From Microgenomates group bacterium (GTDB taxonomy: Bacteria > Patescibacteriota > Microgenomatia > Daviesbacterales > UBA10151): a DNA stretch of 64,000 nucleotides. The notes below the pieces were generated by a model that saw only the letters and a program-made list of their open reading frames with translations, had not been told where the DNA came from and ran no database searches. The stretch covers positions 512,589 through 576,588 of the forward strand of contig JBAZXP010000001.1 of assembly GCA_041659805.1 (NCBI GenBank), in the 5' to 3' direction. Positions 1,360 through 56,234 of this stretch are shown piece by piece; the stretch's first letter is position 1, and the number at the start of each line of letters is the position of its first letter. Both the position numbers and the translations under genes were made by a program.

Positions 1360-2259
1360 ATGATGAAAAATAAAATTTCAGTCGTTATAAATACCTTCAA
1401 TGAGGAAGAAAATATTGAAAGAGCCTTAAAGTCAGTTAAATGGGCAGATGAGACGGTTGTTTGCGATATGTTATCAGGTGATAAAACCGCAGAAATTGCC
1501 AAAAAAATGGGGGCCAAAGTAGTTTTGCACAAGCCTCAAAAGTATGTAGAATTAGTCCGTAACTTTAATATATCTCAAGCTTCAAATGATTGGGTGTTAA
1601 TTTTGGATCCTGATGAAGAAATTCCTGAAAGTTTAGCTAAAAAAATACAAGAAGTGACAGAGATGGATGGTGTGACATTCGCAGAGATCCCCCGGAAGAA
1701 TATTATTTTCGGCAAATGGATGGAAAATTCAATGTGGTGGCCTGATTATAATATCAGATTATTTAAAAAGGGTAGTGTGGTATGGAGTGAAGAGATCCAT
1801 AGACCGCCCCAAACAGAAGGTAAAGGCTTTCAGCTTGACTCAACAGAGGATTTGGCAATAATTCATCATCATTATGAGAGTATTTCACAATTTATTACCA
1901 GAATGGACCGTTATACTACCGCACAAGCTGGGGAATTGGCTAAAAGCGGTTATAAATTAAATTGGAAAGACCTAATTGAAAAACCTGTCAGTGAATTTCT
2001 AAACAGATATTTTGCAGGTCGTGGCTATGAGGATGGATTGCATGGATTGGCTTTAGGTTTGCTTCAGGCACTCTCTTTTTTGGTAATGTATCTGAAAGTA
2101 TGGGAAGAAGAAAAGTTTAAAGAGCAAAAACTACAATTTAAAGAAGTGTCTGATGAGGGTAAAAAGATTGGTAAAGAAATTAACTACTGGTTTAAATATG
2201 GTAACCTTTCTAAAAATCCTATTATACGTGCATTTCAAAAAGCTAAAAATAAATTTTAA
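1360..2259 (+). CDS. GT2 glycosyltransferase, WaaE/KdtX-like (LPS-core type)
   Basis: N-terminus 'ISVVINTFNEEENIERALKSVKWADETVVCD..SGDKTAEIAKKMGAKVV' matches the WaaE/KdtX signature (NEE..I..CL.S..WADE..V.DS.S.D.T..IA...GAKV). 'ILDPDEE' acidic DxD-like motif, 'WWPDYNIRLFKKG'. One of four paralogues in the window (1360, 3107, 11991, 60266). Confidence 0.75.
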   Translation: MMKNKISVVINTFNEEENIERALKSVKWADETVVCDMLSGDKTAEIAKKMGAKVVLHKPQKYVELVRNFNISQASNDWVLILDPDEEIPESLAKKIQEVTEMDGVTFAEIPRKNIIFGKWMENSMWWPDYNIRLFKKGSVVWSEEIHRPPQTEGKGFQLDSTEDLAIIHHHYESISQFITRMDRYTTAQAGELAKSGYKLNWKDLIEKPVSEFLNRYFAGRGYEDGLHGLALGLLQALSFLVMYLKVWEEEKFKEQKLQFKEVSDEGKKIGKEINYWFKYGNLSKNPIIRAFQKAKNKF

Positions 2260-3110
2260 TGGTAAAAGTTGCAGTTGTAATTTTAAATTTCAAAGTTAAA
2301 GAAGAAACACTGAAATGTGTGGCTTCTGTTGAAAAATCAGATTATCATGATATAGAAATTATTGTTGTAGATAATAATTCAGGAGATGATATCGAGGACA
2401 GTCTGCCTAAAAACAACAGAACAATTTTTATTCAGAGCGGAGACAATTTGGGATATACCGGCGGGAACAATTTAGGAATTAAAAGAGCGCTAGAAGATAA
2501 AGTAGATTATATTTTTGTATTGAATCCGGATACAGAGGTAACGATAACTGCTATAAGCAGTTTAGTGACTGAATCTGAAAAAGAAAAAATAGGAATAATG
2601 GGTCCTAAAATCCTTTTTGGGGATAGAAAGACGATTTGGTATGCGGGTGGGTTAATGGATTTGGCGAACGTTTTAGGCCAACATAGAGGGGTGGATGAGA
2701 TGGATGCAGGGCAATATGATAAAGTAGAGCAGACTGAATTTGTGACAGGAGGGGCAATGTTTGTAAGTAGTGAGGTTTTTGAGAAGATTGGTTTATTTGA
2801 TGAAAAATATTTTATGTATTTAGAAGATAGTGATTTTTGTTTTAGAGCCCAAAAAATGGGATATAAAATTTTATACAATCCTAAAGCGGTTGTTTATCAT
2901 GAAAATGCAAAATCAGCAGGATTAGGGTCACCTTTACAGGATTATTTTATAACCCGCAACAGAATGTATTTTGCCTCAAAGTTTTTGTCCTTCAGAACAA
3001 GATTTGCTCTCTTCAGGGAAGCTATAAGAAATATCGGAAGTCTAGTCAGAAGACTAGCTTTTTTTGATTTTTTAAGTGGTAATATGGGGAAGGGGAGTTA
3101 TATTCAATGA
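2259..3110 (+). CDS. GT2 glycosyltransferase, WbbL/rhamnosyltransferase-like
   Basis: 'VAVVILNFK..IEIIVVDNNSGDD', 'GYTGGNNLGI', 'DEKYFMYLEDSDFCFRAQKMGYKI' are typical of the non-processive GT2 rhamnosyltransferase-like family. Paralogues at 4984 (N-terminal domain), 17059 and 61231. Confidence 0.75.
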   Translation: MVKVAVVILNFKVKEETLKCVASVEKSDYHDIEIIVVDNNSGDDIEDSLPKNNRTIFIQSGDNLGYTGGNNLGIKRALEDKVDYIFVLNPDTEVTITAISSLVTESEKEKIGIMGPKILFGDRKTIWYAGGLMDLANVLGQHRGVDEMDAGQYDKVEQTEFVTGGAMFVSSEVFEKIGLFDEKYFMYLEDSDFCFRAQKMGYKILYNPKAVVYHENAKSAGLGSPLQDYFITRNRMYFASKFLSFRTRFALFREAIRNIGSLVRRLAFFDFLSGNMGKGSYIQ

Positions 3111-3910
3111 TCTCAATAATTATACTAACAAAAAATGAAGAGAGTATGATTCACGCCTGTTTGGAATCTGTTAAATGGGCTGACGAGGTAATTGTTATAG
3201 ATTCAAACAGTCAGGACAAAACAGCGGAAATTGCAAAAAATTTCGGAGCAAAGGTTTTTGCCCGTGAGTTTGATAATTATGTTAATCAAAAAGGATTTGC
3301 GATGACAAAAGCATCCGGGGATTGGATTTTATATGTTGATGCTGATGAGAGGGTTTTGGAACCTCTAAGACAGGAGGTTTTGGGTTTGATTGCCAAAGAT
3401 CAGATTTCTGCCTATGCTCTTTCCAGAAGGAATATTATTTTCGGAAAAGAGGAAAAGTATGGCCCGTTCTGGCCTGATTGGGTGATAAGGTTGGTAAAAA
3501 AAGATGACTTTGTTAAATGGGTGGGGGAAGTGCATGAGCATATGGAATTTGAAGGAAAATTAGGTTATACAAAAAATTCTTTACTTCATTTAACTCATAG
3601 AAATGTGGAGCAGGTAATTTTAAAAAATTTACAATGGTCAAAAATTGATGCTAAATTAAGAATGGACGCTCATCACCCCAAGATGTCCAGATGGAGATTT
3701 TTACGGATATTATGTTCAGAGCTATTTAATCAGGGAATTATAAGACGCGGATTTTTTAACGGGTCTGTCGGAACAATTGATGCCCTGTTGCAAACATTCA
3801 GTATGTTAACAACATATATCAGACTTTGGGAGATGCAGCAAAGAAAGCCTTTGGATGAAATATATAAAGATTTAGATACTCAGTTAATTAAGGAAAATTT
3901 TAATTTCTAA
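3107..3910 (+). CDS. GT2 glycosyltransferase, WaaE/KdtX-like
   Basis: 'ISIIILTKNEESMIHACLESVKWADEVIVIDSNSQDKTAEIAKNFGAKVF', 'YVDADERV', 'FWPDWVIRLVKK'. Paralogue of 1360. Confidence 0.75.
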   Translation: MISIIILTKNEESMIHACLESVKWADEVIVIDSNSQDKTAEIAKNFGAKVFAREFDNYVNQKGFAMTKASGDWILYVDADERVLEPLRQEVLGLIAKDQISAYALSRRNIIFGKEEKYGPFWPDWVIRLVKKDDFVKWVGEVHEHMEFEGKLGYTKNSLLHLTHRNVEQVILKNLQWSKIDAKLRMDAHHPKMSRWRFLRILCSELFNQGIIRRGFFNGSVGTIDALLQTFSMLTTYIRLWEMQQRKPLDEIYKDLDTQLIKENFNF

Positions 3911-4978
3911 ATGAGAGTCGGAATTTACACTCCATATCTGGACAGTTTTGGCGGTGGGGAGCGGTATATGTTAACTATCGCTGAAATTTTATCATCAAAT
4001 AACCGGGTTGATCTGTTGCTTGACCGGCATCTGCAAGTTTTGATTACCGAAGAAGTTAAAAAAAATCTTGGTGAAAGATTCAACTTAGATCTTTCTAAAG
4101 TAAATTTAATTGAAGCTCCTATAGGAGCTAATTCAGGATTTTGGAGAAAATTATTTTTTTTAAGAAAATACGATCTGCTGTTTTATTTAACAGATGGAAG
4201 TATTTTTTATTCAACCGCTAAAAAAAATATTTTACACTTTCAGGTTCCCTTTAAAAATACTGTAACCAATTCTTTTTGGGGAAGGATAAAACTTTTAAGC
4301 TGGAATCTGGCGATTTGTAATTCGAAGTTCACACAAAGCATTATCGAAAAAGAATGGCCGATTAAATCTCAGGTTCTTTATCCTCCGGTTGAAGTAGAAG
4401 TAATTGAACCGTTAGCTAAGAAAAAACAGATATTATCCGTTGGCAGGTTTGCCAGTTTTTCTAAATCAAAAAAGCACGAGGAGATGATAAAGGCTTTCGG
4501 AGATTTATTCCATTCCGGAAAAATTGATGGATGGGGTTTGCATTTGGCAGGATCGATCGAAGGAAGTGAAGACTATATCGCGGAACTAAAGAATTTGGCA
4601 GAAGGGTTGCCGGTAACCTTTTATCCCAACATTCCATTTAAAGATTTAAAGCGATTATTCGGTGAATCCAGTATTTATTGGCATGCAGCAGGGTATGGTG
4701 AAGAAGATCCTACCCAAATGGAACATTTTGGTATAGCGACAGTAGAAGCGATGGCCGGAGGATGCGTTCCGATAGTTATAAATCAAGGAGGACAAACAGA
4801 AATTGTTGAAAATGAAACTTCCGGATATCTCTGGAATCAAGTCAATGAATTAAAAGTTCTTACTGTTAAAGTAATTATGGACCATTCTTTATGGCAAAAA
4901 TTATCCGCTAATGCCATAAAAAGAAGTAAAAACTTTTCTAAAAAGACTTTTGAAGAAGACATTCTAAAAATCGTTTAA
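3911..4978 (+). CDS. GT4 (GT-B fold) glycosyltransferase
   Basis: C-terminal 'EHFGIATVEAMAGGCVPIVINQGGQTEIV' is the GT4 E-x7-E donor-binding motif; the N-terminal acceptor domain starts 'MRVGIYTPYLDSFGGGERY'. Confidence 0.8.
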   Translation: MRVGIYTPYLDSFGGGERYMLTIAEILSSNNRVDLLLDRHLQVLITEEVKKNLGERFNLDLSKVNLIEAPIGANSGFWRKLFFLRKYDLLFYLTDGSIFYSTAKKNILHFQVPFKNTVTNSFWGRIKLLSWNLAICNSKFTQSIIEKEWPIKSQVLYPPVEVEVIEPLAKKKQILSVGRFASFSKSKKHEEMIKAFGDLFHSGKIDGWGLHLAGSIEGSEDYIAELKNLAEGLPVTFYPNIPFKDLKRLFGESSIYWHAAGYGEEDPTQMEHFGIATVEAMAGGCVPIVINQGGQTEIVENETSGYLWNQVNELKVLTVKVIMDHSLWQKLSANAIKRSKNFSKKTFEEDILKIV

Positions 4979-4983: not shown

Positions 4984-7140
4984 ATGAATAAGACGAGTAT
5001 TATTATTGTGACATTTAACAGTGCCAGAACAATCAAGGCTTGCTTGAATTCTGTTATTAGGTATTCTTCGGAAGCAGAAATTATTGTAGTTGATAACAAT
5101 TCAGAGGATCAGACTATAGATATAGTTAAAGCATTCGGAAATAAGGTAAAGTTAGCTAATTCTGGGGGGAATTTAGGGTTTGCTAAAGCAAACAATCTAG
5201 GGGTAAAGTCTGCCGGTGGAGATTATTTAATTTTTTTGAATCCTGATACAAAGATACTTGAAAAGGGTAGTTTGGAAAAATTAAAGATAAGTATGGAATT
5301 AAATCCTGAATATGGAATTATCGGACCAAAATTAATATATCCGGATGGGACGCCTCAAGACCGAGTACGTAATTTACCTACAATAGCTCGAGCATTTAAC
5401 GAGTATTTTTTAAACAAAAAGGGTGAGTATGACTTTTATTCCCCTGATTGTAAATCACTTTGTGAGGTAGAAAGCATTATCGGTGCCTGTATTATTATTA
5501 GGAAAGAATTATTTAAAAAAATCGGAGGATTTGATGAAAAATATTTTATGTATTATGAAGATTTGGAATTATGCAGAAGGGTAAGAGAACTGGGCTTTAA
5601 GGTAGGGTTTTTACCTGAAATTACCATTGAACATGCTGAAGGAAAATCAGGAATAAATCAAAAAACTTCTCAAATGTTGAATGAATCTGCCCAAAAATAT
5701 CATAGTTTAGTGGAATATTTTTTAATTCAATTGATATTGCGGTTAAGTAACGGAAAAAGAAAGTTGTTTTGGGCTTTGATTATTTTTCTCGGAGCAGCAT
5801 TTTTCAGAATATTTTTCTTTGATCTAATTGAATTTAAAGCAGATGAAGCAATAACGACTTTTCAAACGGTAGAGTTTTATTTAAATCCATATTTAATTCA
5901 AAGAGGTTTAATATCAGGAATCGGAGTTTATAATTTTCCACTTTTTAGTTATTTGATTATTATATTGGCAATTTTCTCTCGTGATCCACAATATATTAGT
6001 TTTCTCATTGCTTTAATTAATACGATGCTAGTTCCTGTTTTCTATATTGTTATAAGGAAATATTATGATCAGTTAACTGCAATTTTTGCCGGCTTTTTAT
6101 TGGCTTTTTCACCCTGGGCAATAATATTTTCCCGTAAAATTTGGGCTCAGGACCTAATTTTATTATTAGCCTTGCCTTTTTTTGCTTTAATTCACGGGCT
6201 GATTATTGATAAAAAGACAAAATTTACCTTGCCGATATTTACTCTTTTAGTTTTATTAAGTCAATTACACGCCTCAGGTTTTTTTCTATCAGCGGCCACT
6301 GTTTTGATTCTTATTATTCTAAGGGTAAAGATTAATTTTAAACAAGCTCTAATGGGAATCTGTATTGGAGCTATTACAACAATACCTTATATAGCTTTTC
6401 AATTATCAGCTATACCTATTTGTCCAGATTGTGATAACTTTTTTAGATATCAAAATTTGCCCCGGCCATTTGATTTATATAATTTAATCCGTCCGTTTCA
6501 GCTAATGAACGGTCAGGGGTATCATTTTGTCTTAGGGAATAGTTTTGATGGTTTCTTGTCTTCTTTCCCTCTTCTGAATATATTGAAATATTTCTTTTTA
6601 TCAAGTTTTGTTATTCCGTTTATCGGTGCATTTTTTATTATTTCCAAAAGACGTGAATATCTTTTCCTTGTTTTGTATTTAACTATCATTCCGATACTTT
6701 ATTTTATTACTAGAACAAATCCTTATATGCATTATTTCGTAATTTTAATTCCTATGGTTGCAACTTTGTATGCGTTCTCGTTTAGTAGTATATATAATTT
6801 TATGAAGAGTAATTTATTAAAAACACTTACATATATAGTTTTTATATTTTTTATTAGTGCCAATATTATTTTTGTTTTTTCTTTTAATCAATATTTGTCT
6901 TCTGCAAAAATAATCAACGGTGATTATGGACCTATTTTTTCTTTATCAAATCAAGTTATTAAAAACGAGCTGAAAGATTATAGGAGTGTTAGTTATTATA
7001 ACGAACTCGAAAGTTTCGCTTACATATTCTTAGGGAAAAAAGATTTTCATTTAAAATTAGCAGAATTTTTTAAATTAAAAGGTAATGAGGTATTTGCTGA
7101 TATAGAACTTAGGAAGAATCAACAGACTGTAAGCAAATGA
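4984..7140 (+). CDS. Fusion protein: N-terminal GT2 (WbbL-like) domain plus C-terminal PMT/ArnT-like GT-C polytopic membrane domain
   Basis: Residues ~1-240 ('SIIIVTFNSARTI..IIVVDNNSEDQT', 'DEKYFMYYEDLELCRRVRELGFKV') are GT2. Residues ~250-718 are polytopic, with 'FKADEAITTFQ' (loop-1 DE motif) and 'LLAFSPWAIIFSRKIWAQD' matching the paralogue motif 'LLAISPWHLHFSRGAWEAN'. Confidence 0.7.
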   Translation: MNKTSIIIVTFNSARTIKACLNSVIRYSSEAEIIVVDNNSEDQTIDIVKAFGNKVKLANSGGNLGFAKANNLGVKSAGGDYLIFLNPDTKILEKGSLEKLKISMELNPEYGIIGPKLIYPDGTPQDRVRNLPTIARAFNEYFLNKKGEYDFYSPDCKSLCEVESIIGACIIIRKELFKKIGGFDEKYFMYYEDLELCRRVRELGFKVGFLPEITIEHAEGKSGINQKTSQMLNESAQKYHSLVEYFLIQLILRLSNGKRKLFWALIIFLGAAFFRIFFFDLIEFKADEAITTFQTVEFYLNPYLIQRGLISGIGVYNFPLFSYLIIILAIFSRDPQYISFLIALINTMLVPVFYIVIRKYYDQLTAIFAGFLLAFSPWAIIFSRKIWAQDLILLLALPFFALIHGLIIDKKTKFTLPIFTLLVLLSQLHASGFFLSAATVLILIILRVKINFKQALMGICIGAITTIPYIAFQLSAIPICPDCDNFFRYQNLPRPFDLYNLIRPFQLMNGQGYHFVLGNSFDGFLSSFPLLNILKYFFLSSFVIPFIGAFFIISKRREYLFLVLYLTIIPILYFITRTNPYMHYFVILIPMVATLYAFSFSSIYNFMKSNLLKTLTYIVFIFFISANIIFVFSFNQYLSSAKIINGDYGPIFSLSNQVIKNELKDYRSVSYYNELESFAYIFLGKKDFHLKLAEFFKLKGNEVFADIELRKNQQTVSK

Positions 7141-8750
7141 AGACAAAAATATTTTTTTTAGGAATATTATTAATAGCCTTTTTTCTAAGGTTTATTAATC
7201 TTGACAATGTCCCCCCAAGCTTAAATTGGGATGAGGTGTCAATTGGCTATAATGCTTACTCAATTTTAAAAACAGGTACTGATGAATGGGGAAAATTTAT
7301 GCCATTAAATTTCCGGGCCTTCGGTGATTATAAATTACCATTATATATTTATGCAGACATTCCTTTTATCGCTTTATTTGGGTTGAATGCGGTTGGCGTG
7401 CGTTTATTATCAGTACTTTCCGGATTAGGAGTAGTCATTCTTAGCTATCTTATTCTAAAAAACTTAACTAAAAATAACACCATAGCACTTATCGGGATGT
7501 TTACGGCAGCAACATTGCCATGGTTAATAATTTTATCAAGAATAGGGCTAGAAGCAAATTTTGCATTATTTTTAGTAACCCTGTTTGTTTATCTTTTTTT
7601 AAGAGGAGTTGAGGAAAAACGATTTCTTGTGTGGTCCGGTATACCCCTTGGTCTGTCTCTTTTTACTTATAATAGCAGCCGCGTTACCACCCCTTTTCTT
7701 ATTTTTGCTGCTGTAATACTTTTTTGGAATAAGCTAAAGAGTCATAAGAGGGAAAGCATTCTAGCTGCAGTAGTTTTAATTTTTTTTGTTTCTGTAGTTA
7801 TTCCTTTGGCTTTATTTTCAGATTCCAGTGCGCGTTTTCAGTGGACGACCATACTTGATGAGGGAGCAATTTTATCTATTAATCAAGAAAGAGGTTTATC
7901 CTCTTTGCCTGCTGCATTTAAGCCTCTTGTTTATAACAAAGTGACTTATTTTATAGTCACATCTGCGCAAAATTATCTTTCGTATTATAATCCTGATTTT
8001 TTATTTATAAACGGAGGATCGAATTTTCAATTTTCAGTTCCGGGAACAGGGCTTTTGTTTTGGGCTTTAATTCCGTTTTTTCTTATCGGGATTTTTTATG
8101 TTCTTTCAAAAAGAAAAGACTGTCAATTGTTTATTCTGGCTTGGTTGTTTATTGCGCCAATCCCGGGTTCAATTACCAGAGATGCACCACATGCTTTACG
8201 TAGTTTATTTATTATTCCACCAATTATTATCATCAGCTCCTTAGGAATCGTTTTTTTAGGCAATAAACTTAAGCAAACATTATTTAAGATAGTTATTCTA
8301 ATTTTTCTTTTGTTGATGGTCTTTCAAACCTATCTTTTTTGGGTTAATTATAATGGCAGTTATAGACAGGAGTTTTCCTGGTCCTGGCAGTATGGTTATA
8401 AACAGGCGATGGAATATATTCAGGTCAATTATTCAAATTATTCCAAGATTGTAATTACAAAATCATACGGAGAACCGCATGAATTTCTGCTCTTTTACCT
8501 TAAATATGATTCTTATAAATATCAGCACGATCTGAGTTTGGTCCGTTATGAAAGGAGTCAGTGGTTTTGGGTTGATAGATTTGATAAGTTTGAATTCATA
8601 AATGATTGGGAAATAAAAGATAGAATGAAGAATGCTCATAATACACTTCTGGTAACAAGTCCCGGTAATTATCCTCCCGGAAGCGCGATTGTGCAGACAA
8701 TTGATTTTTTGGATGGGAAAAGGGCTTTTGATATAGTGGATATAGAGTAG
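7137..8750 (+). CDS. PMT/ArnT-like (GT39/PMT_2) GT-C glycosyltransferase
   Basis: About 11 predicted TM helices. Loop-1 'LNWDEVSIGYNAYSILKTGTDEWGKFMPL' (conserved DE). C-terminal soluble domain with 'ITKSYGEPHEFLLFYLKYDSYKYQ' and 'FLDGKRAF', shared by 8773 and 10405. ATGA overlap with the upstream gene. Confidence 0.75.
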   Translation: MKTKIFFLGILLIAFFLRFINLDNVPPSLNWDEVSIGYNAYSILKTGTDEWGKFMPLNFRAFGDYKLPLYIYADIPFIALFGLNAVGVRLLSVLSGLGVVILSYLILKNLTKNNTIALIGMFTAATLPWLIILSRIGLEANFALFLVTLFVYLFLRGVEEKRFLVWSGIPLGLSLFTYNSSRVTTPFLIFAAVILFWNKLKSHKRESILAAVVLIFFVSVVIPLALFSDSSARFQWTTILDEGAILSINQERGLSSLPAAFKPLVYNKVTYFIVTSAQNYLSYYNPDFLFINGGSNFQFSVPGTGLLFWALIPFFLIGIFYVLSKRKDCQLFILAWLFIAPIPGSITRDAPHALRSLFIIPPIIIISSLGIVFLGNKLKQTLFKIVILIFLLLMVFQTYLFWVNYNGSYRQEFSWSWQYGYKQAMEYIQVNYSNYSKIVITKSYGEPHEFLLFYLKYDSYKYQHDLSLVRYERSQWFWVDRFDKFEFINDWEIKDRMKNAHNTLLVTSPGNYPPGSAIVQTIDFLDGKRAFDIVDIE

Positions 8751-8760
8751 AAAATTTAGG

Positions 8761-8766
8761 TATAAT
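8761..8766 (+). promoter_or_regulatory. TATAAT -10-like box 6 nt upstream of ATG 8773 (near-leaderless start)
   Basis: 'aggTATAATattagtATG'. No Shine-Dalgarno between box and start. Confidence 0.3.
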
Positions 8767-8772
8767 ATTAGT

Positions 8773-10401
8773 ATGAGGATAAAAACTCCCTCCATTTATG
8801 TATTCATAATTTCAGTAATTTTTCTTCTGGGACTTTTGTTAAGGGTTGTTTCTCTTCAAAATTTTCCACCGGGCTTTAATGCAGATGAGGCAGCTTTAGG
8901 CTACAACGCTTATTCAATCATACAAACAGGTAAAGATGAATGGGGGCAAACTCTTCCTCTGGTATTTAAATCATTTTCAGACTACAAGCCTGGCTTATAC
9001 GTCTATTTGGATATACCTTTTGTTTATTTGTTCGGTTTAAATGAGCTAGCAGTTAGATTGCCCTCAATTATTTTAGGTTCGTTTTCAATTATACTTATTT
9101 ATCTTCTCTCGAAGCTTCTATTCAAAAAAGAGGTAGTTGCTTTGTCCACTGCATTTTTATTGGCGATTTCACCTTGGCATCTGCATTTTTCAAGAGGAGC
9201 TTGGGAAGCCAATGTGGCTACCTTTTTTATGCTCCTGGGAGTTTTTTCATTTTTAAAGTCTTTTACCAACCGCCGTTTCCTGTGGGTATCCGCGCTAGCT
9301 TTTATAGCCTCTATGTATGTATATCAAAGCACAAGGTTGGTGACGCCTGCATTACTGCTTTTGATAGGATTATTTCACTGGAAAAGATTGTTGATCAAAA
9401 AAAATATCTTAATAATTACTGCATCGTTTATTCTACTACTTCCTTTAATCCTCATTTTGCCTACTACAGCAGGTTTAGCCAGATTAAAAGGAGTTTCTAT
9501 TTTTTCCGATCCCGGTCCTATAAATCGGGCAAATGAAGAAAGAGGACAGCATCAAGATCCTGATTCGATTTCAGCTAAATTCTTTCACAATTATTTCTTT
9601 ACTTATTCAAAAAGCTATTTTAAACATTACACTGATCATATGAGTCCTGACTTTCTATTCATTTCAGGAGGTTCATTAAAGAGGAATGAAGAGCCTAATA
9701 TGGGACAGATGTATAGGTTTGAAATTATTACACTTCTTCTGGGTCTATATTTCCTTTTCCGGAATAAATTTAAAGATTCGGAAATAATAATTTTATGGTT
9801 TATTGTAGCTCCTATTGCTTCGTCGCTTACTTTCCAAACACCGGATGCTCACAGATCTCATAATATGGTTATTCCGTTAATCTTAGTTTCTGGTTCAGGC
9901 CTGGGGTTTTTAATTGAGAAAATTTGGCAAATAAAAAAGATTTTCAGGAGTATTTTCTTAATTTTACTTTTTTTTATAATAAGTTTTTTTGTTGTAGACT
10001 ATATGGATAATTATTATGTGCATCTTCCTAAAGAATATGCATTGGAATGGGAATATGGTTTTTCTCAAATGGTACCTTATGTTTTAGAAAATCAGAATAA
10101 ATATCAAAAAATAGTTATTACAGACCGGTATGATCAACCTTATATATTGTTATTATTTTATTCCAAATATGATCCGACAAAATATCAAAGAATGATTAAA
10201 AAAGAGGGTGATAATAAATTCGGATTTACAACTGTTACAAATTTTGATAAATACGAATTTAGGCCGGTTTCACAAGAAGAGGTATTAAATGATCGTAATA
10301 CACTTTTTGTCGGGACTGGAGAGGAGATTAAACAAGGCAATGTTTTGAAAACAATTAATTTCCCTAACGGTTCACCCGCCTTTAAAATAACCGGTATTTA
10401 A
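8773..10401 (+). CDS. PMT/ArnT-like (GT39/PMT_2) GT-C glycosyltransferase
   Basis: 'NFPPGFNADEAALGYNAYSIIQTGKDEWGQTLPL', 'LLAISPWHLHFSRGAWEAN', C-terminal 'ITDRYDQPYILLLFYSKYDPTKYQ ... FPNGSPAF'. Tandem paralogue. Confidence 0.75.
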   Translation: MRIKTPSIYVFIISVIFLLGLLLRVVSLQNFPPGFNADEAALGYNAYSIIQTGKDEWGQTLPLVFKSFSDYKPGLYVYLDIPFVYLFGLNELAVRLPSIILGSFSIILIYLLSKLLFKKEVVALSTAFLLAISPWHLHFSRGAWEANVATFFMLLGVFSFLKSFTNRRFLWVSALAFIASMYVYQSTRLVTPALLLLIGLFHWKRLLIKKNILIITASFILLLPLILILPTTAGLARLKGVSIFSDPGPINRANEERGQHQDPDSISAKFFHNYFFTYSKSYFKHYTDHMSPDFLFISGGSLKRNEEPNMGQMYRFEIITLLLGLYFLFRNKFKDSEIIILWFIVAPIASSLTFQTPDAHRSHNMVIPLILVSGSGLGFLIEKIWQIKKIFRSIFLILLFFIISFFVVDYMDNYYVHLPKEYALEWEYGFSQMVPYVLENQNKYQKIVITDRYDQPYILLLFYSKYDPTKYQRMIKKEGDNKFGFTTVTNFDKYEFRPVSQEEVLNDRNTLFVGTGEEIKQGNVLKTINFPNGSPAFKITGI

Positions 10402-10404
10402 AAG

Positions 10405-11994
10405 ATGACTAAGAAAATTAAAATAATTTTTTTTGTAATCATTGTCCTGGCAGCAGTTTTAAGAATATATAAACTTGATTCAATTCCACCTGCACTAAAT
10501 TGGGATGAAATTGATGCAGGATATAACGCATATACAATTGCAAATTGGGGACGTGACGAATGGGGGCAATCATTTCCTCTTGTTTTTACTTCGTTTAAGG
10601 ATGACAAACACCCTGTGCATATATACTTTGCTGCAATAAGTGTAAAACTATTGGGTTTGAATGATTTTTCAACAAGATTGCCGGCAGCTTTATTTGGAGT
10701 TTTTTGTGTTGCGGCGATGTTCTTTTTGGCAAGATTATGGTTTAAATCAGATTTAGTAGCTATTTTTGCAGCACTGTTTTTAGCAATTTCGCCTTATAAT
10801 ATACAATTTTCGAGAGGTCTTTGGGAGACAAATTTCGCACTATTTTTCTTTTTGATGGGTTTTATATTTTTTTATAAGTCAATAAACAGAAATGTCAAAT
10901 TTCTTATATTGTCTATAGTAAGTTTTTTTATAAGCATATTGTCATACCATTCTCCTGTTGTTGTAGTTCCCCCGATTATGTTGTTGCTAATCCTTCTTTA
11001 TTTCCGGGAAATAATTAAAATTAAACATCTGTTTGTTGGAATAATAGTGTTGGCATTACTCACATTAATATTAGTTTTAAATCCGCGAATATTAGGACTT
11101 GCCAGGATTAAACAAACAAAATTCGGAGATGATCTGTTGAGAAAAACACAGATGTACCAACTTACTAAAAATAATAATCTCGCTGCCCTTGAGATTGCTT
11201 TAAGTCAGTATCCGGTTCATTATACTTCTGAGTATCTGTTTGAAAAAGGTGATCAAAGTGCCAGAAACTCAGTTAAAGTTTTCGGGGAGTTTTATAAAAT
11301 AGACGCAATATTTATGTTGATTGGGTTTGCTGCCTTAGTTTTTTTAAGATCCAGAGTAACTCTTATTTTATTTGCCTGGATTTTACTGGCACCTTTGCCG
11401 TCTGCTTTAGTGATGAATCCGCCGAACGCAACAAGAGCTCTATTTATGATGGGGTCTTTGCATATGTTATCTGCTTTAGGTGCTGCAACAATTATAAAAC
11501 TAATACCTTTAAAGCCTTTAAAAATTATTTCAATAGTAGCTATTTTATTAATTTTAGGATCTTTCAGTAAAAATTACTTAGATTATTATTTCAATGTTTA
11601 CCCGAGTAAGGAATCTATTGATTGGCAATATGGAATGAAACAGATTGTTGAATATGTTAAGGACCACAATGGATATTCTCAAATTTATGTGACAGATATC
11701 AGATCCCAACCTTATATCTTTTTTCTTTATTATCTCAAAACACCTCTATCCGAATTTTTAGATACAGCATCTTATAATAACGGTAAAATGAAGGACACCA
11801 GTTTGGTATCATTTTATGATAAATATTACTTCGGGGAATGGGACCCGATTGAAAGTATGCCTAATCCGGGAGTTTTATATGCAGTTACAGCAAGTCAGTA
11901 TGACGGTTTAAGATATAAAAGTGTATTTGACGTTAAAAAACGTATAAAATATCTGGATGGAAGAGATGCGTTCTTTTTAGTAAGCTATCCATGA
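10405..11994 (+). CDS. PMT/ArnT-like (GT39/PMT_2) GT-C glycosyltransferase
   Basis: 'LNWDEIDAGYNAYTIANWGRDEWGQSFPL', 'LFLAISPYNIQFSRGLWETN', C-terminal 'VTDIRSQPYIFFLYYLK ... YLDGRDAF'. Third tandem paralogue. Confidence 0.75.
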   Translation: MTKKIKIIFFVIIVLAAVLRIYKLDSIPPALNWDEIDAGYNAYTIANWGRDEWGQSFPLVFTSFKDDKHPVHIYFAAISVKLLGLNDFSTRLPAALFGVFCVAAMFFLARLWFKSDLVAIFAALFLAISPYNIQFSRGLWETNFALFFFLMGFIFFYKSINRNVKFLILSIVSFFISILSYHSPVVVVPPIMLLLILLYFREIIKIKHLFVGIIVLALLTLILVLNPRILGLARIKQTKFGDDLLRKTQMYQLTKNNNLAALEIALSQYPVHYTSEYLFEKGDQSARNSVKVFGEFYKIDAIFMLIGFAALVFLRSRVTLILFAWILLAPLPSALVMNPPNATRALFMMGSLHMLSALGAATIIKLIPLKPLKIISIVAILLILGSFSKNYLDYYFNVYPSKESIDWQYGMKQIVEYVKDHNGYSQIYVTDIRSQPYIFFLYYLKTPLSEFLDTASYNNGKMKDTSLVSFYDKYYFGEWDPIESMPNPGVLYAVTASQYDGLRYKSVFDVKKRIKYLDGRDAFFLVSYP

Positions 11995-12857
11995 ATAATA
12001 AATTAACAGTTGTGCTGGCTACCTATAACGAAGAAAAAAATATTAAAGGATGTTTAGATTCAATAAAGTATATCACTGATGAAATTGTTATTGTTGACGG
12101 GTCTTCAACTGATAAAACAGTTGATATTGCAAAATCATATAATGCAAAAGTTGTTATAACTGATAATCCCAAAATTTTTCATATTAATAAACAAAAAGCA
12201 ATTGATATCGCGAGCAATGAATGGATTTTACAGCTTGATGCTGATGAAAGAGTGTCGCCGAAGCTTGCTGAAGAGATAAAGAAGATTATTTCTATGGATG
12301 AAAGTGGGATTGAAGCATATGAAAAAAAGTTACCAAATAGAAATCTTTTTTTACGGCACCAAAAGTTGGTTGAAGAAAGAGATGGGACAATAGGAGAAAA
12401 AAGTGGCGCATATAATGCTTTTTATTTTCCCAGACTTAATTATTTTTTAGGCAAATATTTGAGATACGGAGGTGTTTATCCGGACGGGGTAATCCGTTTA
12501 ATTAGAAAAGGAAAAGCATATCTACCCTGTAAAAGCGTTCATGAACAAATGGTTGTGAGCGGAAGGGTTGGCTGGCTCCAGCATGATTTATTGCATATGG
12601 CTGATACAACATTTGAAAGATATTTGCAAAGAAACAGCCGTTATATAGATCTTATCCGGGATGAGCTGAAAAGAGATAAAGTAGGTAAAAATATTATTCA
12701 AATGATTAATTATTTTATTTTAAAGCCTGTTTATTGGTATTTTTTAACTCAAATACGACACAAAGGTGTTTTAGATGGTTTTCAGGGAATAGTTTTTTCT
12801 TTTTTTTCTGCATTAAGATTTCCCAGGGCTTATTATAGATATATAACACAATTATGA
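11991..12857 (+). CDS. GT2 glycosyltransferase, WaaE/KdtX-like (divergent)
   Basis: 'LTVVLATYNEEKNIKGCLDSIKYITDEIVIVDGSSTDKTVDIAKSYNAKVV', 'LQLDADERV', 'VYPDGVIRLIRKG'. Has an insertion relative to the other three paralogues. Confidence 0.7.
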   Translation: MNNKLTVVLATYNEEKNIKGCLDSIKYITDEIVIVDGSSTDKTVDIAKSYNAKVVITDNPKIFHINKQKAIDIASNEWILQLDADERVSPKLAEEIKKIISMDESGIEAYEKKLPNRNLFLRHQKLVEERDGTIGEKSGAYNAFYFPRLNYFLGKYLRYGGVYPDGVIRLIRKGKAYLPCKSVHEQMVVSGRVGWLQHDLLHMADTTFERYLQRNSRYIDLIRDELKRDKVGKNIIQMINYFILKPVYWYFLTQIRHKGVLDGFQGIVFSFFSALRFPRAYYRYITQL

Positions 12858-13891
12858 AAATAGGTTTTTGCGTCTCAGCACTTTCAAGCGGACATAATAT
12901 AAGAGGAATAGGCGTTTATACGAAAAACCTTCTTGCAGCTCTAAAATCTAATGACGGGGTAGTCATTCAGGAATTTTCAGGTTCTGCGATTCCTAAAACT
13001 GACATAGTTCACTATCCTTTTTTTGATTTATTCAAAAAGTCGTTACCGATTCGAAAAGATGTTCCGACTGTTGTTACAATTCATGACGTTATACCTTTGG
13101 CATATTCTGAATTTTACCCTGCCGGGACTAGGGGTTTTGTAAATTTGTATTTACAGAAATTGTCTTTAAAAAACGTATCAGCGGTAATAACGGATTCTAA
13201 AGCTTCTAAGGAAGATATAATTAAATACCTGAAATTTCCTGCCTCAAAAATTTACACAATTCCGTTGGCCCCTGCAGATTATTTTCACAAGATAGATGAC
13301 AAGGATAAACTAAAAACGATAAGGCAAAAATTTAATCTGCCTGAAAAATTTGCTCTTTTTACAGGTAATGTTAATTGGAATAAAAATTTAGTTAATCTTA
13401 CTGCTGCTGCAATAAAAGCGGATATTGATGTTGTTTTAATCGGTAAGGGTTTTGAAGAAAAAGAGAATTTGGATCATCCGGAGCTTAGAAGCTTTAAGGA
13501 ATTTCTGAATAAATTTTCTACTAATTCGAAGGTTCATATTTTAGGGTTTGTTGAGGTTGGGGACTTAGTTGGTATAACTAATATGGCAACAATGGCATTA
13601 TTCCCGTCAAACGCAGAAGGGTTCGGTTTGCCTATCCTGGAGGCTCAAATTTGTGGTACGCCTGTTATTACATCAAATATTTCTTCTATGCCCGAAGTTG
13701 CCGGTAGAGGTGCTTTATTGGTTGATCCGAATTCGGTTGAAAGTATTTCACGGGCAATTTCAAGAATATTAACTAAGAAAGATCTTAGAGAAGAGTTGAT
13801 CAAAGAAGGGTTAAAGAACGTAAAAAGATTTTCCTGGAAAAAAACTGCCCAAGAAACTATTCAAGTATATGATAAAGTCCTACATTCCTAA
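12854..13891 (+). CDS. GT4 (GT-B fold) glycosyltransferase
   Basis: 'EGFGLPILEAQICGTPVITSNISSMPEV' is the E-x7-E motif. N-terminal 'MKIGFCVSALSSGH'. Confidence 0.75.
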   Translation: MKIGFCVSALSSGHNIRGIGVYTKNLLAALKSNDGVVIQEFSGSAIPKTDIVHYPFFDLFKKSLPIRKDVPTVVTIHDVIPLAYSEFYPAGTRGFVNLYLQKLSLKNVSAVITDSKASKEDIIKYLKFPASKIYTIPLAPADYFHKIDDKDKLKTIRQKFNLPEKFALFTGNVNWNKNLVNLTAAAIKADIDVVLIGKGFEEKENLDHPELRSFKEFLNKFSTNSKVHILGFVEVGDLVGITNMATMALFPSNAEGFGLPILEAQICGTPVITSNISSMPEVAGRGALLVDPNSVESISRAISRILTKKDLREELIKEGLKNVKRFSWKKTAQETIQVYDKVLHS

Positions 13892-15008
13892 AATTATTCT
13901 TATTTTTGCCTTTTGGAGAATTGCACTTTTTGTCGTTGCATTTTTGGCGCTTTTTGCATTTCCGGTTTTCGGTAACAGATTTCCTTATTGGGATATGTTA
14001 CTTTCAACAACCGGTCTTCCATCATGGATCTGGGGTTTTGGAAGTTTTGATGGTGTGCACTACCTTCGGATTGTAACAATGGGATATGAGTCATCACAAT
14101 ATTCACAAGCTTTTTTCCCGCTCTTTCCGTTATTTATAAAGATGGTGACTTTATATAGCGGAAATTTTTTAGTTGGGTTAATATTCACAAATTTGGTTTT
14201 TTTGATGGCTTTAATCGTTTTCTATAAATTGGTTGAGTTGGATTATAATCACAAGACTGCTTTACTTTCTATAATTTTGCTATTAGTTTTTCCAACTTCT
14301 TTTTATTTCGGATCTTTATATTCAGAATCTTTATTTTTATTTTTTACTGTCTCAACTGTTTATCTTTTACGCAAAAAGAACTATTTAGCTGCAGGAGTTT
14401 ATGGTTTGCTTGCTTGTAGCACCCGGATTATTGGACTATGGCTAATACCTTTATTTTTAACAGAAATCTTTTTTGAGTATAAGGGTACAAAGGTTGATAA
14501 GGGTACATCTACTAAAATAATCTTCGGATTATTTCTTATTCCCCTTGGTGTTTTTCTATACATGCTTTATTTAGGTTTTAATTTTAATGATCCGATTTTA
14601 TTTTTGAGTTCACAGCCTGCTTTCGGAGCCCAAAGAAGTAGCTTCATTGTAACGACTCCGCAGGTATTTTTTAGATATATAAAAATACTGCTTACAGTAC
14701 CCGTAAATTCCACTCTGTTTTTTAATGGTTTTCTGGAGTTTTGTTTTACCTTAATTTCTCTTATTTTTTTAATTATTGCATATGGAAAAACAAGGCTTAG
14801 CTATTGGGTATTTTCTTTCGGTTGTTGGCTAACACCTACTCTAACAGGTACTTTTTCTTCGATGCCCAGATATATTTTAATGATGTTTCTTTTATTACCC
14901 TTGATTGCAAAAATTAACAGTAAGTACTTTATTTTACTTGTAACATTGTTTATTATTCTAGGCATGTTACTAACAGCTTTATTTACCAGAGGATATTGGG
15001 TTGCATGA
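13869..15008 (+). CDS. PIG-V/Gpi18-like (GT76) polyprenyl-phosphate-mannose-dependent mannosyltransferase homologue
   Basis: 'FDGVHYLRIVTMGYESSQYSQAFFPLFPL' aligns with the PIG-V signature ('[28 protein letters not shown]'). Further 'SESLFLFFTVSTVYLL ... LLACSTRIIGLW' matches 'SEALFALLTFSAMGQL ... FATGVRSNGL'. Polytopic. Confidence 0.65.
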   Translation: MIKSYIPKIILIFAFWRIALFVVAFLALFAFPVFGNRFPYWDMLLSTTGLPSWIWGFGSFDGVHYLRIVTMGYESSQYSQAFFPLFPLFIKMVTLYSGNFLVGLIFTNLVFLMALIVFYKLVELDYNHKTALLSIILLLVFPTSFYFGSLYSESLFLFFTVSTVYLLRKKNYLAAGVYGLLACSTRIIGLWLIPLFLTEIFFEYKGTKVDKGTSTKIIFGLFLIPLGVFLYMLYLGFNFNDPILFLSSQPAFGAQRSSFIVTTPQVFFRYIKILLTVPVNSTLFFNGFLEFCFTLISLIFLIIAYGKTRLSYWVFSFGCWLTPTLTGTFSSMPRYILMMFLLLPLIAKINSKYFILLVTLFIILGMLLTALFTRGYWVA

Positions 15009-15664
15009 AGCTCGCCATCGTAGTTCCCGCATATAATGAGGAAAGCAGGATTGGCTCTGTGCTGCAGGATCTTATAAAAACGAAAATCCCCATTATTGTA
15101 ATTGACGACGGTTCGAGTGATAACACTTATAAAATTGTTCAAAGCAACAAGGTCATTCCTTTAAAACATAAAATTAATTTGGGCAAAGGCGCAGCTTTAA
15201 AAACCGGTTGTGAGGCAGCTTTTTCCTTGGGGGTGGAGGGCGTTATTATTATGGATTCGGATGGTCAGCATAGAGTAGGCGATCTCGATAAATTCGTCGC
15301 TGCACTTGAAACAGGAAATTATGATGTAGTATTCGGATCAAGAAATCTAAGTTTTGGAGTTCCGTTTATGCGGTTTGTAGGTAATAAATTTGCGTCTGTG
15401 CTAGTATCTTTTCTTTTTGGAATTTATGTGTCAGACTTGATCTGTGGCTACCGGGCTTTTACCAAAAAGGGCTATGATAACCTTAAGTGGCAATCGTCCG
15501 GATATGGAGTGGAGACAGAAATGGTTGTAAGGACCGGAAAACTAAAATTAAGATTTTGCGAAGTACCTGTGGAGACAATATATTTTGATAAATTTAAAGG
15601 GGTCACAATACTTGATGCGGTAGGTATTTTATTTAGTGTTTTGAAATGGAGAATTTATAAATGA
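14996..15664 (+). CDS. GT2 polyprenyl-phosphate sugar synthase (DPM1/GtrB-like), short soluble form
   Basis: 'KLAIVVPAYNEESRIGSVL', 'IIVIDDGSSDNT', 'IIMDSDGQH' (the DADLQH motif of DPM1/GtrB). No C-terminal TM helices. The start may be the internal Met at 15005. Confidence 0.7.
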   Translation: MGCMKLAIVVPAYNEESRIGSVLQDLIKTKIPIIVIDDGSSDNTYKIVQSNKVIPLKHKINLGKGAALKTGCEAAFSLGVEGVIIMDSDGQHRVGDLDKFVAALETGNYDVVFGSRNLSFGVPFMRFVGNKFASVLVSFLFGIYVSDLICGYRAFTKKGYDNLKWQSSGYGVETEMVVRTGKLKLRFCEVPVETIYFDKFKGVTILDAVGILFSVLKWRIYK

Positions 15665-46086: not shown

Positions 46087-46124
46087 GATTGCGAAATTAT
46101 AGCATAAGGAAAGTCATCATAAAA

Positions 46125-47291: not shown

Positions 47292-47323
47292 TTATTTTTA
47301 TTTGTGATATTCTACCACATATT

Positions 47324-48373: not shown

Positions 48374-48420
48374 CATTCATAAATTGACGTATATATAATC
48401 TGTCTCATAAAGGGAATTTT

Positions 48421-56232: not shown

Positions 56233-56234
56233 AG

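Follow-up and report, generated by a model that had tools for sequence, protein, structure and literature searches.

Tandem GT-C glycosyltransferase paralogues and a facultative GT2::GT-C fusion in a putative cell-envelope glycopolymer operon of a Microgenomates bacterium

A row of related membrane glycosyltransferase genes, one of which also carries a cytoplasmic-type domain, raises the question of what such an operon would make and what the fusion would contribute. The window, meaning the whole stretch of DNA analysed here, is a glycan-biosynthesis island of 64 kb from an uncultured member of the Microgenomates (CPR). Its first part, from position 1 to 20179 (~20.2 kb), forms an operon in which every gene junction overlaps or leaves a gap of 36 bp or less, and the GT-C genes share it with more than ten genes for cytoplasmic GT2 and GT4 enzymes (Pfam). 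A sequence-only reading had described five PMT/ArnT-like GT-C paralogues, one of them (4984) fused to a GT2 domain, and the open reading frames that it named were all located where it had placed them. Four of these genes are paralogues related to the PMT/PMT_2 family:

1..1323, plus strand: 3′ part (440 aa) of a GT-C paralogue, N-terminus cut by the window edge (BLASTP to 8773)
7137..8750, plus strand: GT-C paralogue A, 537 aa, PMT/PMT_2 family (PMT 43.6 bits, PMT_2 34.8 bits)
8773..10401, plus strand: GT-C paralogue B, 542 aa (PMT 36.6 bits, PMT_2 41.2 bits)
10405..11994, plus strand: GT-C paralogue C, 529 aa (PMT_2 49.4 bits)

The gathering cut-offs are 22.7 bits for PMT (PF02366) and 26.1 bits for PMT_2 (PF13231). 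Both models passed in 7137 and 8773; in 10405, PMT_2 passed and PMT reached 22.5 bits against 22.7. The partial gene had no PMT match, and its PMT_2 score of 18.7 bits lies under 26.1 because the gene is truncated. Pairwise identity among the four is 23-37%: by BLASTP, 7137 matched 8773 at 37% over 536 aa (E 9e-92), 10405 matched 8773 at 31% (E 2e-73) and 7137 at 28% (E 4e-58), and the partial gene matched 8773 at 24% over 450 aa (E 4e-36). In contrast to these four, 4984 is distant (25% over 395 aa, E 5e-7, against 7137), and the Pfam scan gave no match in its membrane part. PF13231 is carried by many stand-alone homologues of the 4984 GT-C part. NCBI labels 8773 as a 'glycosyltransferase family 39 protein', and the JGI automatic name on homologues is 'L-Ara4N transferase-like'.

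The claim that all five proteins share the same motifs was compared in alignment A3, and it holds for the four paralogues; in 4984 the likeness is confined to the first Asp-Glu motif and SPW..SR. The loop-1 motif N[WA]DE..GYNAY.I...G.DEWG was found in 7137, 8773 and 10405 and is not visible in gene 1-1323 because the N-terminus is cut at the window edge, while in 4984 it is reduced to 'EFKADEA', without GYNAY or DEWG. The mid-protein SPW..SR motif is present in all five proteins. The C-terminal motifs 'P..F.L.Y.KYDP' and 'F[LP][DN]G..AF' occur in four of the five and are missing in 4984, which ends in a helical tail of ~70 aa compared to the ~115 aa alpha/beta tail of the paralogues. Within the 8773 family (alignment A2), D38, E39, D55 and E56 are invariant; D38-E39 (nt 8884-8889) and D55-E56 are placed in outer loop 1 of 8773, and the C-terminal alpha/beta domain is placed outside. 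As judged by sequence, the group consists of four real paralogues and one distant family member, with a similarity far beyond chance.

The fold is consistent with this assignment. The 8773 model (pLDDT 92.1, pTM 0.91) gave 26 Foldseek matches in the PDB at E <= 1e-3, all of them GT-C enzymes with TM ~0.5, the best being STT3, ArnT, PglB, AglB and Pmt4, with Pmt1/Pmt2, EmbA/B/C, AftA and AftB also among them. The best PDB sequence-profile match was ArnT (5ezm), a weak one (E 1.2e-3) that covers residues 68-220 only. Together with the Pfam matches, these results bear out the PMT/ArnT-type GT-C identity proposed earlier, and the models place the enzymes in the polytopic GT-C_A fold common to STT3, PglB, ArnT and PMT. 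The models have 11 hydrophobic helices. Every short K/R-rich loop lies on the same side as the N-terminus, and the opposite face carries the acidic loop 1 together with the C-terminal domain. The model helix boundaries and the positive-inside rule thus suggest an N-terminus inside and an Asp-Glu loop outside, as had been predicted. The enzymes resemble ArnT (GT83) in their outer C-terminal domain and in TM ~0.5 to 5ezm/5f15; with 11 helices rather than 13, the weak profile match and no lipid A genes found in the island, they were not assigned to that family.

Two known activities of such enzymes have to be weighed. In one, the tandem paralogues would be protein O-glycosyl(mannosyl)transferases, each for different secreted, pilus or S-layer proteins. 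Like PMTs (GT39; yeast Pmt1/2/4 and Mycobacterium tuberculosis PMT), they have PF02366, the GT-C fold with 11 predicted helices, and an Asp-Glu pair in outer loop 1. The gathering-level PF02366 scores of 7137 and 8773 would equally allow protein O-glycosylation, the GT39 naming and the Pmt4 and Pmt1/Pmt2 fold matches point the same way, and fungi also keep several PMT paralogues. However, PMT_2, a model that also covers ArnT-type lipid/glycan transferases, scores equally well or better, the Foldseek ranking puts STT3 and ArnT ahead of the PMTs, a MIR domain is absent, the ~115 aa C-terminal alpha/beta domain is extra, and the many cytoplasmic GT2/GT4 genes of the operon are typical of polysaccharide or glycopolymer assembly; we therefore consider protein O-glycosylation unlikely, though worth keeping in view. 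In the other, ArnT-like enzymes would attach an aminoarabinose-type sugar to lipid A phosphates, as the 5ezm match and the JGI name might indicate. Given how short and weak that match is, the helix count, the lack of any lipid A or Ara4N genes found in the 64-kb island, and that CPR bacteria are generally considered to be without LPS, this is extremely improbable.

Relatives keep a separate orthologue of each paralogue: for 7137, L004_9371 (57%), L001_9407 (47%) and L003_11686 (45%); for 10405, L001_12748 (57%), L003_14971 (55%) and L004_12619 (51%); and for the gene at 1-1323, the 560-aa L003_1124 and L004_3498, at the same position in the cluster. Overall, 7137, 8773 and 10405 are each 45-66% identical to their own orthologue elsewhere, compared to 28-37% among themselves, which fits distinct, non-redundant roles. 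Given the old divergence of the four paralogues and the retention of each in relatives, they most likely differ in acceptor or linkage specificity, and the serial, linkage-specific additions suggested in the sequence-only reading are a reasonable supposition.

The surrounding genes indicate which substrates such enzymes might use:

1360..4978, plus strand: block of four cytoplasmic GT genes (Pfam, NCBIfam), as follows
1360-2259, plus strand: GT2
2259-3110, plus strand: WbbL-like GT2
3107-3910, plus strand: GT2
3911-4978, plus strand: GT4
11991-12857, plus strand: cytoplasmic GT2 of the same operon (Pfam)
12854-13891, plus strand: cytoplasmic GT4 of the same operon (Pfam)
13869..15008, plus strand: PIG-V-like (Mannosyl_trans2) polytopic glycosyltransferase, also of GT-C type (PF04188, 28.0 bits)
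14996-15664, plus strand: PpgS/GacI-like GT2, candidate lipid-linked donor supplier (NCBIfam)
15661-16005, plus strand: small DUF2304 (GacJ/Rv3632-like) membrane partner (DUF2304, 61.4 bits)
52111-53682, minus strand: Wzx/Polysacc_synt flippase, candidate exporter (Pfam)
53784-55466, plus strand: radical-SAM gene between the exporters, not export machinery (Pfam)
55474-57020, minus strand: ABC-2 permease and ATPase, candidate exporter (Pfam)

The gene order of the 1360..4978 block is kept in L001, L003 and L007, the 11991..13891 pair is syntenic in L001, L003 and L004, and the PIG-V-like protein has an orthologue in L004_16075 (52% identity). With it, the operon has at least six GT-C-type genes (the four PMT/PMT_2 paralogues, the 4984 relative and this one). 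The best NCBIfam match of 14996 is PpgS, full-length at 115 bits and below the equivalog cut-off of 370, followed by AglJ and dolichyl-phosphate hexose transferase. GacJ, a DUF2304 member, activates GacI, and Rv3632 activates PpgS (bioRxiv 10.1101/180810). We propose that 14996 and its DUF2304 partner probably supply a lipid-linked donor; with this pair in the operon, the GT-C enzymes are putative users of polyprenyl-phosphate-linked donors. A distance of 36-40 kb separates the GT-C genes from the Wzx and ABC-2 genes, which are on the opposite strand; the sole Wzx-type gene is 36 kb off. No GtrA was found within the 64-kb island, and a Pfam scan of ORFs of at least 120 aa, which left out two short ORFs of the region under study, gave no priming phosphoglycosyl transferase.

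Gene 4984 consists of the following parts:

4984..5748, plus strand: GT2 domain, residues 1-255, GT-A fold of WbbL/rhamnosyltransferase-like type, two amphipathic helices at its C-terminus (Pfam, NCBIfam, Foldseek)
5749..5763, plus strand: junction, basic linker NGKRK, residues 256-260, directly before GT-C TM1 (fused versus split alignment)
5758..7140, plus strand: GT-C domain, residues 259-718 (~460 aa), 11 predicted TM helices (hhalign, model)

The GT2 domain scored 86.6 bits with Pfam Glycos_transf_2 over residues 5-230, and its Foldseek matches are GT-A enzymes. Its best NCBIfam match is the rhamnosyltransferase TIGR01556 (residues 18-254, 78.1 bits compared to a cut-off of 200.55). Rhamnosyltransferase, GlfT1 and EpsD-type models align with its full length, whereas AglJ/AglG-type polyprenyl-phosphate enzyme models match the N-terminal half only. 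In fused and free forms alike, D37, N86, D88, E192, D193 and H217 show 95% conservation or more. This GT2 is thus most likely of a WbbL-like type that would elongate lipid-linked glycans in the cytoplasm, and it does not resemble enzymes that synthesise polyprenyl-phosphate sugars. Close free homologues are named WbbL by automatic annotation. For the membrane part, hhalign of A1 against A2 gave a probability of 99.1% (E 1.5e-18), with 4984 residues 260-650 on 8773 residues 9-430. Its first outer loop has K285-x-D287-E288 (D-E at nt 5842-5847), and within the 4984 family the conservation of K285, D287 and E288 is 90% or more. Further along come SPW376-378/SRK383-385, C480-x-D482-C483 in the large loop outside, and a short outer tail that is helical. 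From these alignments, the last two-thirds of 4984 belong to a different GT-C subfamily from the paralogues, to which they are more distantly related. The best 4984 model has pLDDT 90.6 and pTM 0.74, the other four have pLDDT ~80, and the relative placement of the two domains is less certain. With the same charge bias, the GT2 domain would face inward and the Asp-Glu loop outward. The earlier description of this topology as unusual does not stand: GT-C enzymes begin in the cytoplasm, and therefore an N-terminal cytoplasmic domain fits without rearrangement.

Is the fusion real, and does it matter? One might suspect an artefact of assembly or sequencing, or a pseudogene in decay with one working half, as the halves are separate genes in most relatives (or the GT2 is absent). 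However, nine distinct full-length, uninterrupted fused sequences with 50-100% identity were found in NCBI, JGI, ENA and Logan assemblies, L008 has an additional ORF of 672 aa, and catalytic residues are conserved in both halves, with 75 invariant GT2 positions among the nine fusions; an artefact or pseudogene is scarcely credible. The Pfam, homologue and hhalign results all confirm the GT2::GT-C fusion as genuine. In the sister Daviesbacteria genome L001, two genes with another GT-C gene between them encode the halves, and each has 69% identity with the corresponding half of 4984. Residues 1-252 of the free GT2 (266 aa) align with 4984 residues 1-252, and residues 7-468 of the free GT-C with residues 257-718, so that the GT2 end and the GT-C start both fall within a few residues of the 4984 junction, and the fusion point lies exactly between the GT2 C-terminal amphipathic helix and the first transmembrane helix of the GT-C. 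Fused and split forms are interleaved in the tree, and the fusion is facultative. By these alignments, 4984 joins two genes of the cluster that related genomes keep apart. L004 keeps the GT-C without the GT2, and therefore functional dependence between the halves is not obligatory.

The same data bear on whether 4984 is a self-contained GtrB-GtrC-type unit, in which the GT2 would make a polyprenyl-phosphate sugar and its own GT-C would use it outside. The amphipathic helices at the membrane surface directly after the GT2 domain fit this, as do the adjacent or fused GT2 and GT-C of many relatives and the occurrence elsewhere of this type of GT2 joined to other polytopic enzymes that act on glycans. 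On the other hand, the full-length model matches are of the rhamnosyltransferase/GlfT1/EpsD type, the operon already holds a dedicated PpgS/GacI-like GT2 with a DUF2304 partner, and the L004 GT-C does without this GT2, which makes such a unit very unlikely.

We instead favour, as moderately probable, an operon for cell-envelope glycopolymer assembly, in which a lipid-linked glycan is built inside, exported and extended by GT-C enzymes outside. We infer the following order of steps, along with the donors and acceptors involved and the activity of both 4984 domains. First, cytoplasmic GT2 and GT4 enzymes would assemble the glycan at the inner membrane face, with polyprenyl as its carrier. Second, the Wzx-type flippase and/or the ABC-2 transporter would export it. 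Third, several GT-C enzymes would add or transfer sugars outside from polyprenyl-phosphate-linked donors, at least one of which would come from 14996 and its DUF2304 partner. The 4984 GT2 would work inside, with the Asp-Glu loop and the remaining catalytic face outside; since its active sites would lie on opposite sides of the membrane, the intermediate would still need flipping. The fusion would then tether two steps of the pathway without a new reaction; functional coupling of its domains is reasonable to suppose, and the fusion, although real, departs only modestly from the familiar machinery of cell-envelope glycosylation.

By analogy, the product would probably be a polymer of the kind represented by streptococcal rhamnose polysaccharides or mycobacterial arabinogalactan. 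The streptococcal and lactococcal systems (GacI/GacJ/GacK/GacL; WpsA/WpsB/WpsG/WpsH/WpsJ) likewise have a GT2 polyprenyl-phosphate sugar synthase (here putatively 14996) with a DUF2304 activator (here putatively 15661), a Wzx-type flippase and an ABC-2 exporter, cytoplasmic GT2/GT4 enzymes that would elongate lipid-linked glycans, and GT-C enzymes that would act outside. In contrast to their one to three GT-C enzymes, at least six GT-C-type genes stand in a row here and are of the PMT/PMT_2 family, the host is a CPR bacterium, and one GT-C is fused to a WbbL-like GT2; the streptococcal/lactococcal literature describes GacJ::GacI fusions only, and not a GT2::GT-C fusion. The mycobacterial arabinogalactan/lipoarabinomannan system (WbbL, GlfT1/2, Wzm-Wzt, PpgS/Rv3632/Rv3779, Emb/Aft/Mpt GT-C) resembles the present one in the WbbL-like type of its GT2, in pairing a PpgS-like synthase with a DUF2304 protein, in having an ABC-2 exporter, and in its many GT-C enzymes in series outside, of which EmbA/B/C, AftA and AftB were seen above as fold matches. 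However, the PpgS and rhamnosyltransferase matches here are below equivalog cut-offs, and the GT-C enzymes of this operon, at ~530 aa and 11 helices, are small and resemble PMT, not Emb.

A broader pattern, in which Patescibacteria repeatedly tether the last cytoplasmic WbbL-like GT to the outer-face enzyme that consumes its flipped product, seems rather unlikely at present. If it were true, each fusion would be a 'Rosetta stone' revealing the lipid-linked donor of an orphan GT-C, and, in a stronger form, the GT-C domain would also help to move the lipid-linked product of its own GT2 across the membrane. In distant Patescibacteria, the same GT2 type is fused to other membrane domains; the partners recorded to date are a PMT-like GT-C (in 4984 and in L014), a PTPS_related domain (L013) and a Wzy_C ligase/polymerase domain (L022).

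We found that every gene between positions 1 and 20179 is on the plus strand and overlaps its neighbors or lies at most 36 bp from them, so that together these genes very probably form a single operon; the next gap is 403 bp. The window is AT-rich (G+C of about 29-37%), and the open reading frame coordinates proposed by the sequence-only reading were all confirmed. The main genes, named here by their start positions, are:

1-1323, plus strand, GT-C paralogue whose N-terminus lies beyond the window edge
4984-7140, plus strand, 718-aa protein with a GT2 domain (residues 1-255) and a GT-C domain (residues 259-718)
7137, 8773 (to 10401) and 10405, plus strand, three complete tandem GT-C paralogues
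14996-15664, plus strand, PpgS/GacI-like GT2
15661-16005, plus strand, DUF2304 protein

The sequence of the 4984 product recurs unchanged in a 'Microgenomates group bacterium' MAG, where NCBI names the protein 'glycosyltransferase', and the 8773 product of the same MAG contig is named 'glycosyltransferase family 39 protein'.

Five paralogues with the same motifs had been described from the sequence alone. In pairwise BLASTP, the three complete genes 7137, 8773 and 10405 proved to be clear paralogues, with identities of 37%, 31% and 28% along the full length (E ~1e-58 to 1e-92), and the gene at 1-1323 a fourth (24% identity to 8773, E 4e-36). The membrane part of 4984 is far more distant: its match to 7137 covers 395 aa with 25% identity (E 5e-7). 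A profile-profile comparison settles, at the sequence level, the homology of this part to the 8773 family: alignments of the 4984 GT-C family (A1, 84 sequences) and of the 8773 family (A2, 63 sequences) matched over 376 columns (probability 99.1%, E 1.5e-18), pairing 4984 residues 260-650 with 8773 residues 9-430, the entire membrane domain. Aligning the five proteins together showed the SPW..SR motif in every one of them. In contrast, the complete loop-1 motif N-[WA]-D-E..GYNAY......DEWG, found in all three complete paralogues, has shrunk to 'EFKADEA' in 4984, and both C-terminal motifs are carried by the other four proteins only; in the models, the C-terminal tail of 4984 is a short helical segment compared to an alpha/beta domain of about 115 aa in the others. 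As judged from these alignments, the original observation is real but was overstated for 4984. In addition, three related loci (L001 from a sister Daviesbacteria genome, L003 and L004) each hold separate orthologues of the three tandem paralogues with 45-66% identity, compared to 28-37% between paralogues; the duplication is therefore old, with every copy retained, which argues for different specificities.

The Pfam results show that 7137 and 8773 exceed the gathering scores for both PMT (PF02366) and PMT_2 (PF13231), that 10405 passes for PMT_2 but is 0.2 bits short for PMT, and that the truncated gene at 1-1323 scores 18.7 bits with PMT_2. For the membrane part of 4984 the Pfam scan gave no match, although PF13231 is found on many of its stand-alone homologues. 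Since single-sequence phmmer searches of the PDB with 8773 and 4984 yielded no GT-C match (for 4984, just GT2 matches), a profile search was needed, and with the A2 profile the top sequence was ArnT (5ezm), a weak match (E 1.2e-3). An ArnT function for these enzymes was considered and rejected. The AlphaFold model of 8773 (pLDDT 92.1, pTM 0.91) gave 26 Foldseek matches with E ≤ 1e-3, all of which are GT-C enzymes (STT3, ArnT, PglB, AglB, Pmt4, ALG12, ALG9, EmbC, EmbB, Pmt1 and DPY19), with TM scores of about 0.5 for whole-chain alignments. The whole 4984 model was uninformative on its GT-C domain, with GT-A folds alone among the 50 matches listed. Residues D38, E39, D55 and E56 (8773 numbering) are invariant in A2, and K285, D287 and E288 (4984 numbering) are at least 90% conserved in A1. 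The array is real, and its GT-C glycosyltransferases belong to a known kind for which NCBI already uses the name GT39.

Topology was derived from the helix boundaries of the 8773 and 4984 models, with hydrophobicity and charge scoring under the positive-inside rule. Both models have 11 hydrophobic helices, and their short K/R-rich loops ('KKE', 'NRR', 'WKRLLIKKN', 'NKFKDS' and 'QIKK' in 8773; 'NGKRK', 'RKYY', 'DKKTK', 'RVKINFK', 'SKRRE' and 'MKSN' in 4984) all share a side with the basic N-terminus, while the acidic loop 1, the large loop after helix 7 and the C-terminal domain are on the opposite side. A GT2 domain that uses a nucleotide sugar is necessarily cytoplasmic. From this and the charge sidedness, we infer that the N-terminus is inside and that the Asp-Glu loop and the C-terminus are outside. 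The models thus support the earlier placement of the Asp-Glu loop outside and the GT2 domain inside; PMT matches and pairwise similarity above background were both found, and no Asp-Glu motif was predicted in the cytoplasm. The topology of 4984 had been called unusual, but the fusion is topologically unremarkable. The 4984 GT-C family has a nearly invariant C-x-D-C motif (C480-P-D482-C483, window 6421-6432; D482 invariant, C480 and C483 at least 90% conserved) in its large outer loop. This motif has no counterpart in the tandem paralogues and could be a disulfide or metal site.

In the N-terminal part of 4984, residues 5-230 match Glycos_transf_2 (86.6 bits), and the model has a GT-A fold with ppGalNAc-T, TarP, WrtF and SpsA among the 50 Foldseek matches listed. 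Homology searches returned nine distinct full-length fused proteins with 50-100% identity to 4984. Below these, the matches are stand-alone GT-C proteins, numbering in the hundreds and about 460 aa long; several are recorded as 'hypothetical protein' of Candidatus Daviesbacteria. Among the best 150 matches in a library of 1.84 billion representatives, only one cluster (P0003) spans the whole protein. That the fusion is an artefact was rejected on the basis of independent sequences from several sources, a 672-aa ORF in locus L008, and catalytic residues conserved in both halves.

The syntenic Daviesbacteria locus L001 has the order GT4, GT2 (266 aa), PMT_2 gene (498 aa), GT-C (468 aa) and three PMT paralogues. 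Its GT2 residues 1-252 correspond to 4984 residues 1-252, and its GT-C residues 7-468 to 4984 residues 257-718, both with 69% identity. The junction alignment shows that the join sits exactly between the terminal amphipathic helix of the GT2 and TM1 of the GT-C, with a five-residue basic linker. Just ahead of TM1 is an in-frame TTG at codon 261 (window 5764-5766), preceded by a weak purine-rich stretch (GGAAAAAGAAAG); the GT-C part could be translated on its own from this codon. Where the GT2 and the GT-C are free, the slot between them has gene cargo that varies among relatives:

L001, 6520-8016, single plus-strand PMT_2 gene
L007, 3079-5879, minus-strand pair of a 541-aa PMT and a 392-aa protein with no Pfam match
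L005, 1-2153, and L006, 245-3045 (shorter contigs), the same minus-strand pair upstream of the GT-C

This slot looks like a hot spot for GT-C cassette swapping. L004 has a GT-C without any GT2 in front, and L003 has the fused form with a longer linker. In a neighbor-joining tree of the GT-C domain, which is indicative only, split forms fall among fused ones (P0010, which is split, is the sister of the window protein, and split P0011-13 are the sisters of fused P0007), which suggests that fusion or fission at this boundary has occurred more than once. The 4984 product is genuinely a GT2 fused to a GT-C, as first read, although the fusion is facultative, being split or GT2-less in relatives.

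A scan of species-representative genomes found one further high-identity fusion only, that of L008. Among the longer matches from the representative library, P0345, P0353 and P0383 were rejected as further fusions since all three are double-GT2 proteins, and P0266, also checked, is a GT2 of 486 aa whose tail is unassigned. In distant Patescibacteria, a GT2 of the same type (37-40% identity) is N-terminal to other polytopic domains, and a less similar one is also fused:

L014, 6885-9086, 734 aa, whose membrane part is a homologue of the 4984 GT-C family (hhalign probability 97%, E 1e-10) and reads 'FGFEQGRD' where 4984 has 'EFKADEA'
L013, 7288-9879, GT2 fused to PTPS_related
L022, 7827-10790, GT2 (28% identity) fused to Wzy_C and TPR repeats

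By these comparisons, the GT2-membrane domain architecture is rare in the orthologous family of 4984 and recurrent in the phylum. A word-index search with the GT2 domain alone (4984-5751) missed the nine fused proteins, even the 100%-identical one, so absence from its list is not evidence of absence. Literature searches covering GT2/GT-C fusions, GT-C arrays in CPR bacteria, GT39 in Patescibacteria and co-occurring Pfam names turned up no account of such a fusion, and the only fusions returned were of GacJ to GacI (PMC10821137; bioRxiv 10.1101/180810). Several contigs with this Microgenomates-type cluster, L008, L012 and L016-L018 among them, are titled 'uncultured Gammaproteobacteria bacterium', probably through mislabelled MAG taxonomy.

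The best NCBIfam model for the 4984 GT2 is the rhamnosyltransferase TIGR01556 (residues 18-254 aligned, below cut-off), followed by EpsD, MftF, HpsE and GlfT1-type models aligned to most of the domain; the polyprenyl-phosphate sugar synthase models AglJ and AglG match its N-terminal nucleotide-binding half only. The free homologues closest to it come from Patescibacteria and are 258-280 aa long; some are auto-named WbbL. The best family for 14996-15664 is PpgS (polyprenyl-phospho-GalNAc synthase) over the full length, then AglJ and dolichyl-phosphate hexose transferase, and a DUF2304 gene follows directly. The DUF2304 member GacJ of S. pyogenes activates GacI, as Rv3632 does PpgS (bioRxiv 10.1101/180810). 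The operon therefore already holds a candidate dedicated donor synthase, and the 4984 GT2 most likely extends a lipid-linked glycan at the inner face.

By gene content, the remainder of the window is one glycan island. It holds further GT2 and GT4 genes, an RmlD-like reductase, epimerases, dehydratases, two UDP-GlcNAc 2-epimerases, a Wzx-type flippase, an ABC-2 exporter pair, several methyltransferases with FkbM-type and class I among them, and:

43752-52087, nonulosonic-acid (pseudaminic/legionaminic-type) set of cytidylyltransferase, NeuB, second UDP-GlcNAc 2-epimerase and PseB-like dehydratase
49569-51095, within this set, hexapeptide acetyltransferase fused to DegT aminotransferase
28559-30142 (minus), 40592-42001 (minus), 44470-46086 (minus) and 53784-55466 (plus), four B12-binding radical SAM genes
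31750-33539, minus strand, transketolase split into N-terminal and pyrimidine/C-terminal halves as two genes, beside a GT2 and an epimerase
20583-21944 (plus), 37420-39216 (minus), 39262-40587 (plus), 46125-47291 (minus) and 58091-60187 (minus), five proteins of 388-698 aa with no Pfam match

To our knowledge, the lipid-linked donors and acceptors of GT-C enzymes cannot be read from sequence, and these enzymes are therefore hard to assign; nor do we know of CPR bacteria that can be cultured for glycan chemistry. The parts list of the island has a parallel in mycobacterial arabinogalactan and LAM assembly. It also parallels the rhamnose polysaccharides of streptococci and lactococci (PMC10821137; bioRxiv 10.1101/180810). 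The locus most likely serves to assemble or decorate an envelope glycopolymer; the main rival is that the GT-C array O-glycosylates proteins. Two points are useful in what is otherwise the expected kind of cell-envelope glycosylation locus. One is the inside/outside pairing implied by the 4984 fusion: the conserved operon combines four to six GT-C enzymes, a PpgS/GacI-like donor synthase and a GT2 found fused to one GT-C in some relatives and split from it in others, and so yields a concrete, testable pair of steps, one inside and one outside. The other is that 'hypothetical' Daviesbacteria and Microgenomates proteins of about 460 aa are recognized as GT-C glycosyltransferases, a family so far unannotated.

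The radical SAM genes alongside FkbM-type and class I methyltransferases suggest unusual C-methylation or another radical sugar modification. The split transketolase may be used in sugar-chain extension and not in central metabolism. The strongly hydrophobic 20583-21944 product could be a polymerase or one more GT-C.
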